Shown here one piece after another: positions 7,844 to 14,259 of a stretch of DNA of 64,000 nucleotides (the first letter of the stretch is position 1; every line of letters begins with the position of its first letter). This DNA is from a virus. The DNA lies in IMG/VR virus record IMGVR_UViG_3300008952_000019, positions 27,449-91,448 of that record; one strand, given 5' to 3'. The position numbers were made by a program, and so were the translations under genes. Under the pieces are notes generated by a model. It had not been told where the DNA came from and did not search any database. It saw only the letters and a program-made list of their open reading frames with translations.

Positions 7844-7850
7844 TATTTAT
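7844..7850 (-). promoter_or_regulatory. T4-like late promoter (ATAAATA)
   Basis: ATAAATA overlapping the stop of the 289-aa gene, 23 nt upstream of the ATG at 7820. Confidence 0.5.
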
Positions 7851-8716
7851 CGTACAAGCAAGAATGAGACGGTTATAATAACTGAACAAAGGAACACAAC
7901 AAAGGTATAATACGTAATTAGGGGAGTTTTAAAATACATTTTACCTATTATAAAACATTTATGGGTGGGACTTAGCATATAACCTGCATAATCTATAGCA
8001 AAAAACATAGGAAGATATTGAACGCCAAAGATACTTGTAAGAATAGCAGTAAATGCAGCAAAGCGAGATGAAGATCCTAATAAAAAACTACCGGCAAATC
8101 CTAACCAAGCACCTGTAATAAGAGACCATTCGTTGTTTTCGATATATCCTTTAATTTCATTTGTATAAGATTTGATGTAATTTCCTAAAATAATAACTAA
8201 AGCAACCGCAATTAATAATTTCCAATTAACCCAATTTACTTTATTAAATTTTTGTATAGGATTAGCCCATACAACATCTTCATCTTTTAAAAAATAAAAT
8301 ACTAATATTAACGGAAGAACTATACCAATAGTAGCAAGTGGCCCCATTATATACATAAACTCTGTATATGTCAATCCTAAAACTGCCATCGGTATAATAA
8401 CAGATTTCTCTAAAGGCGACCACAAATAGTAATGATGTGTACTGAGATAATCTATAATACCATACCATTTACGTTTATCATCCTTGGGTGCCATAGTATC
8501 CAAAATACCTGCAGATACTGATACTCGACCAGGTATAGGTAATACACCACATACAGAACTAATTATAATAATAAATAACCTATTGGATTTTATATATTTG
8601 TTTAAAAAATTTAATGTTGGATACACCCAACCTTTACGTTGAATATATGCTGAGATAATCATGATAGCTGCCAAATATATAATATACCATTGATTATTAA
8701 ATATTATTTCTAACAT
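7847..8716 (-). CDS. Multi-pass membrane protein, DUF401-like (ion transporter superfamily)
   Basis: 289 aa, many hydrophobic helices; GVLPIPGRVSVSA, THHYYLWSPLE and GYMLSPTHKC recall the DUF401 motifs GLLPMPGG, RH..E..WP and G..LSP.HLC. Confidence 0.65.
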   Translation of the reverse strand: MLEIIFNNQWYIIYLAAIMIISAYIQRKGWVYPTLNFLNKYIKSNRLFIIIISSVCGVLPIPGRVSVSAGILDTMAPKDDKRKWYGIIDYLSTHHYYLWSPLEKSVIIPMAVLGLTYTEFMYIMGPLATIGIVLPLILVFYFLKDEDVVWANPIQKFNKVNWVNWKLLIAVALVIILGNYIKSYTNEIKGYIENNEWSLITGAWLGFAGSFLLGSSSRFAAFTAILTSIFGVQYLPMFFAIDYAGYMLSPTHKCFIIGKMYFKTPLITYYTFVVFLCSVIITVSFLLVR

Positions 8717-9425
8717 GATTTTCGTATAGTCTTTTAATTATATGTCTAGGATATTGGAAAGAAAAGTAATTTAAATATTTTCTTTTCTTTAGCCAGAGCT
8801 TATCGTTCTTAGTTTGATCTCGTACTATAACATCATAACTTTTCTCTGTCAATGGAATTAAATGTGCAATAGGGGTTCCTGCTTTTATAAAAGTAGTTCC
8901 ATTAGGGTAATTCCAGTATCCTTGAATATTTACTTCTGTACTATAACCAGGATCTAAAATACCTATGCAACATTCAAAATCTATAAATTCTGTGTATGAT
9001 ATAGGTACCATTAAAAACTTAACACCTTTAGGTGCCATGACATGCCATGGGGTATTAACTTTAACAATATCAGGCCAACTCCATGGTCGCTTAGGTAAAT
9101 GTTTTCCTATTTTATCACCTAGCTGTAAACTAACTGTATCTTTACCTAAAAACTCATTTATAGACCTATCAGGTACTGACCACTTTTCCCTTGATATTTC
9201 AAGATCATGCCACATAGGAACAATATAACCAGTCGTAAACAGATGGAAAATTCCAGGACATCTAGTTATATGCTGAAAACTAGTTTTTTCATTTTTTTGT
9301 GATATTAAGAAGTCTTTTCTTGCTTCATTAACCCATGAGGGGGTAAATTCTTTTGCAGGTTGTATAGGAAATGATTCTGCTAATCCTTCTACAGATGAAA
9401 AAAATTCAATAGCATTTTTACCCAT
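8697..9425 (-). CDS. dUTPase-fold/DUF6065-like phage protein of unknown function
   Basis: PIQPAKEFTPSW...TRCPGI..LFTTGYIVPMW...PWHVMAPKG...GILD...IKAGTPIAHLIP; lacks the Gly-rich dUTPase motif V. Confidence 0.55.
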   Translation of the reverse strand: MGKNAIEFFSSVEGLAESFPIQPAKEFTPSWVNEARKDFLISQKNEKTSFQHITRCPGIFHLFTTGYIVPMWHDLEISREKWSVPDRSINEFLGKDTVSLQLGDKIGKHLPKRPWSWPDIVKVNTPWHVMAPKGVKFLMVPISYTEFIDFECCIGILDPGYSTEVNIQGYWNYPNGTTFIKAGTPIAHLIPLTEKSYDVIVRDQTKNDKLWLKKRKYLNYFSFQYPRHIIKRLYENHVRNNI

Positions 9426-12720: not shown

Positions 12721-12721
12721 A

Positions 12722-13876
12722 TTAAGTACCTGCGTCTACACCTGCTTCAGAATAAACAATAGATGCTGCAGCAGTTGAACATGTTCCAGATGATTGTCCA
12801 AAATGACTTTTAGGTTGAGATTTGGCACCTAATGTTACTTCAGTATCTGTTGAATATGTTAATTTAAGAGTATGATTGTTTTGGTTACCATCATAATGCC
12901 CCATTACGTATCCTTGGTCTTGCCCCATTTGACAATTTTCTTCGCCGTACGATCTAACTTTAGCAAAAGTTAAAATACTTGCACCATTAACATCAGATAT
13001 TTTATGCCAATTAGCAGTTACATTTGCTCCGTCTCCATGATAATGATGGTCGTGTTTTGAACTTAACGACTTTGTTGTAGCTCCTGTAAATGCATAATCC
13101 ATTCCACCACTTGTCCATGTGTCTGTTGCGTATGTAAAATACCGTCTATTATCTGTTGCAACATTATTCCAAGATATAAGTTGGCCATAACATGATCCTG
13201 TGCCGACACCTGATACTCCTAAGTTTGAAGATATTGTAAACATTGATTCAGTAGCAAAATGCATTTTATTTGTTTCATTACTATTGTGAGCAAAATAACC
13301 ATCTTGCCCAATAATATTAGCAAATCCTACGCCATCGCCGATGCTAAAACTAAAATTCCATCCTCCATGCCCGCCAAAATCCGAAGCAGAACCATATTCG
13401 ATACCCTCACCACCTGGGTCATTTCCTACATATCCATATGGTGCAGTATTTGAAGAATGTGTTCCACTACCACTATTTCTACCTTGACCTGTTGCTAAAC
13501 TATATGTACTTAAATTTGTTCCAGAACCGCTGTGACCGTTTGCTGAAAGATAGGCATTCCAATGACTCATTGATCCTACATTATATGATGCTTCATTATC
13601 TAATTGTTCACCACAATAAATTGTTACATCTGTCGAATGCCATGTTTTATTAAGACTTCGCCAAGCAATACTACCTTTGTAACCACCTGCTAGAAAGCCA
13701 TGAGTATATATTGTTCTATATCTCCATCCCGATAAAGTTGTTAATGATTCGGGATTACCTGGATATGCCCAATAAGTAGATGTACCTGTACTTCGTAATT
13801 CAGATCCTACTGAAGAAATATTAGGTGGAGGAACTCCGTCCTCATATTGTGCTCTTGTTCTTGAGTAAATTCCCAT
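12722..13876 (-). CDS. Gly/Ser/His-rich repeat protein, putative fibre tip (beta-propeller-like)
   Basis: 384 aa; recurring G(Y/F)..G and (F/Y)(A/S)T(D/E)(T/S) blade-like motifs (HGFLAGGYKG, MHFATES, FTYATDTW, QGYVMGHYDG, LTYSTDT). Confidence 0.55.
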   Translation of the reverse strand: MGIYSRTRAQYEDGVPPPNISSVGSELRSTGTSTYWAYPGNPESLTTLSGWRYRTIYTHGFLAGGYKGSIAWRSLNKTWHSTDVTIYCGEQLDNEASYNVGSMSHWNAYLSANGHSGSGTNLSTYSLATGQGRNSGSGTHSSNTAPYGYVGNDPGGEGIEYGSASDFGGHGGWNFSFSIGDGVGFANIIGQDGYFAHNSNETNKMHFATESMFTISSNLGVSGVGTGSCYGQLISWNNVATDNRRYFTYATDTWTSGGMDYAFTGATTKSLSSKHDHHYHGDGANVTANWHKISDVNGASILTFAKVRSYGEENCQMGQDQGYVMGHYDGNQNNHTLKLTYSTDTEVTLGAKSQPKSHFGQSSGTCSTAAASIVYSEAGVDAGT

Positions 13877-14259
13877 TATACTTCTTCTAACATAAATTTG
13901 TATTTTTTACCAGTTTTTTTATTAATTAAAAATAAATCATTAGCACCTTCTTGGAATACCCAAGAACCTTTAGTGCCATCTATTTCATTGCCTGCTTTGT
14001 TAGGTCGATCATTACTCATAATTAAATCAGCTACACTTATATCATTACAATATATATCTGTTGCATGTATATTACCATTTACTGTTAGTTCATATCCTGC
14101 TTGTTGTGTGGCTGTGTTAACAGTTAAACTATCTAACATCATAGTCGTATCTGTTACCCATGTTCCGGTATAAACTTGACCGCCGCCGCCAGTCAGATCT
14201 ATTTTATTATTATTACTAGGATCTCTAGGTCTTATTTCATCTACGTATAATGTACTCAT
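13876..14259 (-). CDS. Small fibre adaptor protein
   Basis: N-terminal MSTLYVDEI motif and C-terminal DLIMSN...NEIDGTKGSWVFQEGANDLFLINKKTGKKYKF domain typical of myovirus fibre ends. Confidence 0.6.
   Translation of the reverse strand: MSTLYVDEIRPRDPSNNNKIDLTGGGGQVYTGTWVTDTTMMLDSLTVNTATQQAGYELTVNGNIHATDIYCNDISVADLIMSNDRPNKAGNEIDGTKGSWVFQEGANDLFLINKKTGKKYKFMLEEV

Follow-up and report, generated by a model that had tools for sequence, protein, structure and literature searches.

A conserved viral gene cassette with a predicted Kelch-type propeller and a divergent U32-like protein fused to a methyltransferase

We analysed a 64,000-nt stretch of DNA of an aquatic T4-like phage (hereafter the window), which corresponds to positions 27,449 to 91,448 of the IMG/VR virus record IMGVR_UViG_3300008952_000019. 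The complete record comprises 91 kb and is estimated to be 42% complete. The window contains a run of seven minus-strand open reading frames (ORFs), here called the cassette, whose products include a Kelch-type beta-propeller and a fusion of a U32-like domain with a methyltransferase. From comparison with other viruses we take the block to be a real functional unit that is conserved and confined to viruses. The tight spacing of the genes, which a preliminary description of the sequence had pointed out, was confirmed: neighbouring ORFs are separated by at most 2 nt or overlap, with, in gene order, a 1-nt overlap, a 1-nt gap, a 2-nt gap and then overlaps of 53, 8 and 20 nt. The cassette is composed of the following genes:

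13876-14259, minus strand: 127-aa gene, first of the run and lineage-specific
12722-13876, minus strand: 384-aa gene, six-bladed Kelch-type beta-propeller, T4-GC 351
11785-12720, minus strand: 311-aa gene, virus-only family, T4-GC 352, phrog_1604
11003-11782, minus strand: 259-aa gene, helical protein that contains a coiled coil and a conserved core, T4-GC 353, phrog_1409
9418-11055, minus strand: 545-aa gene, fusion of a U32-like domain and a methyltransferase
8697-9425, minus strand: 242-aa gene, soluble protein and accessory member, phrog_7084
7847-8716, minus strand: 289-aa gene, polytopic membrane protein of the DUF401/TIGR00529 family

Searches of Pfam, NCBIfam and PDB sequences with the seven cassette proteins gave almost no matches, and megablast of the region against phage records gave none. 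The family DUF6065 was also looked for and gave a single marginal match; its absence from 101 Chloroflexota genomes carries no weight.

For the 545-aa protein, a fusion of a U32 enzyme and a methyltransferase had been proposed, and both halves are backed by profile comparisons and by fold. The protein itself has no family match in the sequence libraries of Pfam (at an E value of 0.01) and NCBIfam. Its AlphaFold2 (AF2) model consists of two domains and has a mean predicted local distance difference test (pLDDT) value of 79. The following elements were located in the gene:

10021-11055, minus strand: U32-like domain (residues 1-345), divergent triosephosphate isomerase (TIM) barrel with seven invariant Cys
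10378-10479, minus strand: Cys motif 1 (C193-x3-C197-x28-C226), coinciding in the alignment with the Fe-S motif region of U32 proteins
10078-10110, minus strand: Cys motif 2 (C316-x3-C320-x2-C323-x2-C326), invariant, in the linker after the barrel and outside the canonical U32 motif
9418-9990, minus strand: methyltransferase domain (residues 356-545), class I S-adenosylmethionine (SAM) fold, nearest to small cation-dependent O-methyltransferases

An alignment of 37 sequences of the N-terminal domain was compared by hhalign with a U32 profile built from 13 sequences, namely TrhP, RlhA, UbiU and UbiV of E. coli and Chloroflexota genes. The two profiles matched over 213 columns with a probability of 98.2 and an E value of 4.1e-14, and because of this match we regard the domain as a true but very divergent U32 relative. 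Comparison of the N-domain profile with single UbiU or UbiV sequences gave no match. The best fold match was the solved U32 protein Mk0906 (5d88; Z 16.4, root-mean-square deviation (rmsd) 3.6, 220 of 247 residues, model residues 1-271), whereas other TIM barrels scored Z ≤13.3. In a Foldseek search with the 545-aa model, Mk0906 occupied rank 11. The Pfam family PF01136 was matched neither by the 545-aa protein nor by ten distant relatives nor in a six-frame search of the whole virus record.

The canonical 4Fe-4S motif of U32 proteins is C-x6-C-x15-C-x3/4-C, with variants in UbiU and UbiV (PMC6747719). In the viral domain this four-Cys motif is replaced, and just C226 and, approximately, C193 align with canonical ligands. 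The region of Cys motif 1 has low pLDDT values, as is expected of a cofactor loop. We infer that the number of invariant Cys, seven, would allow the binding of two clusters, or of one cluster together with a different metal. The U32-like domain is also found as a stand-alone protein of about 340 aa among many metagenome proteins. The full fusion had two matches in 185,579 prokaryote genomes, both on short contigs of metagenome-assembled genomes, and is, on these sequence counts, essentially confined to viruses.

The methyltransferase domain (model residues ~356-545) matched the folds 5x7f (Z 16.6), 8c9v (Z 16.3), 4cdz (Z 16.1) and TrmR (5zw3, Z 15.6). Since tRNA m1A58 methyltransferases scored within 1 Z, these matches do not separate the subfamilies. 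Nearly all of the listed 545-aa homologues carry PF13578 (Methyltransf_24), some source databases name homologues YrrM-like O-methyltransferases, and a separate methyltransferase ORF of a related locus (L114, see below) scored 26.6 bits against the Pfam cut-off of 26.3. In an alignment of 27 sequences, E385-x-G387-x3-G391, D409, D469, D495, D496 and N498 were invariant. These residues fit a putative SAM site and a putative metal triad of the catechol-O-methyltransferase type.

The 384-aa protein had been labelled a Gly/Ser/His-rich repeat protein, which has to be corrected to a six-bladed Kelch propeller. Its AF2 model (predicted template modelling score 0.77) superimposed on the Kelch domain of KLHL17 (6hrl) over 270 aa with Z 29.3 and rmsd 2.5, followed by 2vpj (Z 28.2) and Keap1 (6fmp, Z 27.3), whereas propellers of non-Kelch classes scored Z ≤19. 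A sequence search of this protein for Pfam Kelch gave no match. The nearest viral models in BFVD were the 'sericin-like' protein of S-RIM12 and a 292-aa protein of Ralstonia phage RP12. A possible connection to fibre proteins was found in cyanophage P-SSM4, whose Kelch protein has an N-terminal extension that shares the motif 'GTT.QRP...G..RYN' with the N-terminus of a 1261-aa protein encoded in the window (28119-31904, minus strand; E 6e-13). Residues 17-78 of the latter match positions 58-108, in the N-terminal part, of the Kelch PHROG phrog_1417, and the protein also has weak matches to tail-fibre PHROGs. The Kelch protein probably forms a small appendage of the virion or the tip of a fibre; in the papers searched we found no virion proteomics of a cassette-bearing cyanophage that places it in the particle. 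The P-SSM4 protein PSSM4_038 (T4-GC 356; 7596-8639 of locus L132), an extremely Gly-rich protein of 347 aa, starts with MSQLNV like the P-SSM4 Kelch protein, and this sequence may be an attachment peptide common to the two.

The presence of the cassette genes in other viruses had been set beforehand as a test of the proposal that they form a module. We selected 80 IMG/VR loci (numbered with the prefix L) solely by similarity to the 545-aa protein and then searched them with a hidden Markov model of each family. The Kelch, 311-aa, 259-aa and U32-methyltransferase families were found together almost always. Upstream of the enzyme gene, the Kelch family was present in 56 of the 57 evaluable loci and the 311-aa and 259-aa families in 55 each; downstream, a DUF401 gene was present in 47 of 61 evaluable loci and the 242-aa family in 27. 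The 259-aa gene was the most constant partner of the U32-like gene. Kelch genes were often repeated in tandem, with one copy in 25 loci, two in 19 and three in 12. Which of the 311- and 259-aa genes comes first depends on the lineage, and in two loci (L070, L078) the structural half is inverted. Among 50,697 phage records, the 545-, 259- and 384-aa families occurred in 126, 128 and 123 records, respectively, each of them including 77 Synechococcus, 38 Cyanophage and 8 Prochlorococcus records. The idea of a self-contained module thus survived the co-occurrence test, and a reduced form of the module was also found in an unrelated jumbo phage.

This jumbo phage is Ralstonia phage RP31, which is phiKZ-like and unrelated to T4. 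It has three neighbouring, overlapping ORFs, namely ORF137 (259-like), ORF136 (U32-like) and ORF135 (DUF401, Pfam E 3e-10), of which ORF136 consists of the U32-like domain only, without a methyltransferase. ORF139, just upstream of them, gives an end-to-end alignment with the Kelch profile (E 1e-3), with terminal motifs in common, and its twin in RP12 is a structural match. The reduced cassette (L111, 5393-12344) lies between ORF140, which has a collagen repeat, and ORF133, and both of these proteins were detected in the RP31 virion (PMC5468394 Table S3). A dCTP deaminase gene and a tRNA-Asn gene are located a few kb downstream of it.

A further arrangement was found in the loci L112-L131 (e.g., L114, 2051-11632). 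Three tandem Kelch genes are followed by the 259-/311-aa genes and a gene for a radical SAM enzyme (PF04055, E 2e-9). Directly after these come a stand-alone U32-like ORF, which a separate Methyltransf_24 ORF overlaps, a gene for a 294-591-aa protein and finally DUF401. The occurrence of the two domains as a fusion in one lineage and as adjacent ORFs in another is good evidence that the U32-like and methyltransferase activities work together.

Related cassettes contain additional inserted ORFs, of which 2-oxoglutarate (2OG)-Fe(II) oxygenases (Oxy_5, Oxy_3) form the largest group, with 38 in one cluster plus smaller clusters. Seven ORFs encode an enzyme of the Trp-halogenase family (PF04820, E 2e-96); such genes lie inside the cassette in L004 (2194-3711, full-length) and also in L007, L074 and L080-L082. 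A relationship of this halogenase to LodB/QhpG was considered and not used, the matches being weak and covering the N-terminal flavin adenine dinucleotide (FAD) fold only. A GT2 glycosyltransferase and extra methyltransferases are inserted as well. On predicted family membership, the inserted enzymes are of types found in tailoring clusters. The suggestion that the U32-like enzyme is an oxygen-independent counterpart of 2OG oxygenases and interchanges with them found no support, because the cassettes that carry oxygenases keep the U32 enzyme; the oxygenases are additions and no replacement. The comparison with a cluster for a ribosomally synthesized and post-translationally modified peptide (RiPP) fared better as far as the accessory 2OG oxygenases, Trp halogenase and radical SAM enzyme are concerned, whereas a leader or recognition element was not identified, no systematic search for one having been made. 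Genes for GT2, GT1 and an NAD-dependent sugar epimerase adjoin some cassettes (L016, 7227-8294; L114, 12142-15966). The virus record from which the window was taken also encodes a 2OG-FeII_Oxy_5 oxygenase (G000:C1:2921-3169), which lies outside the window and more than 30 kb from the cassette.

The remaining cassette proteins could be described to different extents. The 127-aa gene, which had been counted among the cassette genes as an adaptor, is part of the run, and its product has a fibre-like C-terminus, residues 86-127 matching the end of the tail-fibre family phrog_892 (E 1.6e-6); a conserved member of the cassette it is not. In its nearest relatives, a gene for a 1089-aa protein is located directly before the Kelch gene, and in L006 about half of the 127-aa protein matches the C-terminal end of this protein with 62% identity. 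The label 'fibre-assembly-like' for the 311-aa protein found no support, the protein having just viral relatives without an assigned function; in the ESM Atlas only viral hypothetical proteins were found. The coiled coil noted earlier in the 259-aa protein was confirmed as a stretch of this helical protein, which in addition has a conserved core that is not coiled-coil. No family for it was found in the libraries searched. A PspA/IM30-like identity was pursued from an ESM Atlas lead (0.80), which was below threshold and could not be confirmed.

The dUTPase fold ascribed to the 242-aa protein rests on sub-threshold matches: the window copy reached 11.5 bits with PF00692 (cut-off 22), four of 21 homologues matched this family (best E 9e-4), all seven PDB profile matches were dUTPases of weak score (E 0.14-1), and an hhalign comparison with dUTPase was confined to the region of motifs 3-4 (33 columns, E 1.3e-3). 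The protein is possibly a non-catalytic member of the dUTPase-like fold and, if this fold is right, probably not a dUTPase by function. For the 289-aa protein, the earlier assignment as a DUF401-like membrane protein was borne out by a match to PF04165 (31.4 bits, cut-off 24) in two stretches and by several hydrophobic segments. It also matched TIGR00529 (E 4e-9), and since its 36 bits do not reach the equivalog cut-off of 378 bits it represents a distant, shortened member of the DUF401/TIGR00529 family. Its homologues match DUF401 positions 60-386 of 393 and also CitMHS. By these family matches, the 289-aa protein is a predicted ion-transporter-like permease.

The cassette had been described as bracketed by promoter-like elements and embedded between structural genes, and both statements were confirmed. 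Two copies of ATAAATA, the core of the T4-type late promoter, delimit the block, and none was found on the coding strand between them:

14265-14271, minus strand: late-promoter-like ATAAATA, overlapping the stop codon of the preceding 172-aa gene, at a distance of 5 nt from the start codon (ATG) of the 127-aa gene
7844-7850, minus strand: late-promoter-like ATAAATA, overlapping the stop codon of the 289-aa gene, 23 nt before the ATG of a 140-aa fibre-like gene, with GGAG in between

The motif is about three-fold depleted in the window (17 copies, 50 ± 6 expected). Twelve copies lie on the coding strand (2554, 6940, 7844, 14265, 15126, 19546, 33694, 37614, 52207, 53084, 53690 and 59735), six of them no more than 35 nt (5-31 nt) upstream of start codons, namely those of the 127-, 140-, 1970-, 110- and 2037-aa genes and of the portal gene. 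The depletion, together with the position of half of the coding-strand copies just before start codons, suggests that a late promoter of the T4 type is in use in this phage and that the motif is avoided at other positions. The flanking 1970-aa protein matches a tail-fibre PHROG (E 6e-158), and genes for portal, major head and tail lysin proteins are located further along in the window. The cassette is probably transcribed late together with the fibre genes.

The U32 family offers a close comparison for the enzyme. Its members UbiU/UbiV, TrhP (= YegQ), RlhA (= YdcP) and Mk0906 share a homologous TIM barrel with the viral domain by profile and structure; the conserved Cys of the cassette enzyme lie in the same loop region as the 4Fe-4S ligands, and a paired methyltransferase step is also known from the biosynthesis of ubiquinone and of 5-methoxyuridine (mo5U). 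In contrast to these proteins, the cassette enzyme is missed by PF01136, has the pattern C-x3-C-x28-C plus C-x3-C-x2-C-x2-C, is fused to a methyltransferase, is essentially viral and is encoded within a block of structural genes. The yrrMNO genes of B. subtilis (TrmR plus TrhP1/TrhP2, tRNA mo5U34) likewise encode a U32-type protein together with an O-methyltransferase of the cation-dependent type, whereas the cassette enzyme is one polypeptide, or overlapping ORFs in one lineage, and its neighbours are the Kelch propeller, the 311- and 259-aa proteins and a permease. RiPP and protein-derived-cofactor clusters (QHNDH, LodA/LodB-type) resemble the cassette in combining a substrate-like protein with Fe-S, radical SAM, flavin, oxygenase and methyltransferase enzymes and a transporter; the candidate substrate of the cassette differs in being a folded propeller of 35-50 kDa.

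In cultured cyanomyophages, the cassette corresponds to T4-GC 351-354 (P-SSM4 orf32-35, P-HM2 098-101, Syn19 043-046). These genes, which adjoin fibre genes, are directly homologous to the 384-, 311-, 259- and 545-aa genes and arranged like them; they share about 25-45% identity with the window proteins, and most lack the 242-aa and DUF401 genes. Their annotations are hypothetical, 'sericin-like', 'prion-like' and 'archaeal protease', the last two going back to Sullivan et al. (2005; PMC1079782) for P-SSM4 orf32 and orf35, respectively. New in the present work are the survey at the level of the cassette, the two further lineages (RP31 and the one with split genes), the accessory genes of tailoring type and the links to T4-GC 351-354 and to the 'archaeal protease' of 2005.

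As the best explanation, held with somewhat less than even confidence, we propose a late cassette in which the U32-methyltransferase enzyme modifies a side chain of the Kelch protein, which is encoded with its dedicated 311- and 259-aa partners, or of a neighbouring fibre protein. The U32-like domain would hydroxylate an aromatic ring independently of O2, as is thought for UbiU/V, TrhP and RlhA; for the family, such activity has been established genetically and not yet in vitro (PMC10990095). The fused catechol-type methyltransferase would cap the new hydroxyl group as a methoxy group, and the permease might supply or remove a small co-substrate, with the 242-aa dUTPase-like protein and the DUF401 permease as optional parts of the enzyme half. 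A protein target is favoured because the genetic link is near-obligate and kept in an unrelated jumbo phage, because Kelch paralogues are expanded and the block lies between virion genes, and because of the accessory enzymes of tailoring type and the N-terminal extension of the P-SSM4 Kelch protein. In a more specific version, which is somewhat less probable, the phage would covalently attach methoxy groups and, in some lineages, halogen or extra hydroxyl groups to the Kelch protein as its receptor-binding tip, or to a neighbouring fibre protein.

Several observations weigh against modification of a virion protein. All characterised U32 enzymes use RNA or quinone and not protein (PMC6747719, PMC10990095, PMC6599085). 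The supposition that most Kelch copies carry the fibre-type N-terminal motif had to be rejected, as only one of the 179 Kelch ORFs of the surveyed loci has it. In the virion proteome of RP31, the products of ORF135-139, the Kelch-like protein included, were not detected (PMC5468394 Table S3), which is weak evidence because this gel-band survey found only 32 proteins (PMC5468394). The content of the block also varies: DUF401 occurred in 12 of the phage records compared to 126 for the enzyme, most cultured cyanophages with the enzyme having no permease; in S-CAM4 (L084, KU686202) the DUF401 homologue is located about 58 kb from the U32-methyltransferase gene, an instance of a permease encoded outside the block; and in S-SSM2 the enzyme gene is 6 kb away from the Kelch trio. 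The first ATAAATA ends just 5 nt from the ATG of the 127-aa gene, too near for a leader, and may therefore serve genes further down. Finally, the proposal leaves the roles of the 311-, 259- and 242-aa proteins unexplained.

The enzyme might instead act on nucleic acid as a viral version of TrhP plus TrmR, converting pyrimidines in tRNA, rRNA or DNA of the host or the phage first to the 5-hydroxy and next to the 5-methoxy form. Genome organisation, and not function, would account for its place among the fibre genes. TrmR is among the tied best folds (5zw3, Z 15.6; 8k1f, Z 14.2) and is the best PDB profile match of the methyltransferase part, homologues are labelled 'O-methyltransferase YrrM' in source databases, two of the three characterised U32 systems hydroxylate RNA (PMC6599085, PMC10990095), and the adjoining 242-aa protein has weak dUTPase-like, nucleotide-binding-fold signals. 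The fold scores, however, do not distinguish TrmR from sugar and catechol O-methyltransferases, all of which lie within 1 Z, and the Cys pattern is unlike that of TrhP and RlhA. Moreover, the gene belongs to a structural block and is tied to the Kelch, 259-aa and DUF401 genes even in the unrelated jumbo phage, the U32-like gene of RP31 comes without a methyltransferase, and the window has no tRNA genes. We consider a nucleic acid target unlikely on balance. A small-molecule pathway, to which we give similarly little credence, would hydroxylate and O-methylate a quinone precursor or a host metabolite of phenolic or indolic type, with halogenation or further oxidation in some phages. Transport of the substrate or product would fall to the DUF401 permease, and the Kelch protein would either bind this compound or have no part in the pathway. 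Ubiquinone biosynthesis follows such a logic, with hydroxylation of the UbiU/V type and then O-methylation (PMC6747719), the block includes a CitMHS/DUF401-type permease, and halogenase, 2OG oxygenases, radical SAM and extra methyltransferases resemble the tailoring sets of natural products. Yet the block contains no scaffold-forming enzyme, the permease is dispensable in most cultured cyanophages, picocyanobacteria and Ralstonia would need the same substrate, and the near-obligate Kelch paralogues and the two structural-looking partners would be left unexplained.

It is also conceivable, if improbable, that the genes form no functional unit at all and that the region is a fibre-adjacent, hyperplastic hot-spot of insertion, in which synteny reflects common descent among T4-like phages. 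Cyanomyophages have hypervariable regions and many scattered 2OG oxygenase genes (PMC3037559), the content of the cassette differs between loci, and Sullivan et al. (2005) took P-SSM4 orf32 and orf35 as probably non-functional transient genes (PMC1079782). Against this stands the finding that the families stay together at 24-60% protein identity despite order swaps, strand inversions and gene splitting, and that they do so in a phiKZ-like jumbo phage unrelated to T4. Purifying selection is indicated by the invariance of the seven Cys and of the motifs of the methyltransferase.

Modification of the Kelch or a fibre protein would, if true, provide the first protein substrate of the U32 family and a RiPP-like maturation of a virion protein that is conserved from marine cyanomyophages to a soil jumbo phage. 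If the Kelch or fibre protein is the target, the biology of phage host range would gain a new layer in the tailoring of receptor-binding proteins by enzymes; if it is RNA or a metabolite, the cassette would represent a new kind of host take-over gene. Genes of the Trp-halogenase family have been known in cyanophages since prnA of P-SSM2. The context of the cassette may point to the natural substrates of these genes and of many cyanophage 2OG oxygenases. For T4-GC 351-354, left 'hypothetical' since 2005, the present analysis provides testable roles. The U32 family is large and has few characterised members, and its virus-only branch with a fused methyltransferase and a candidate substrate offers a compact study system.

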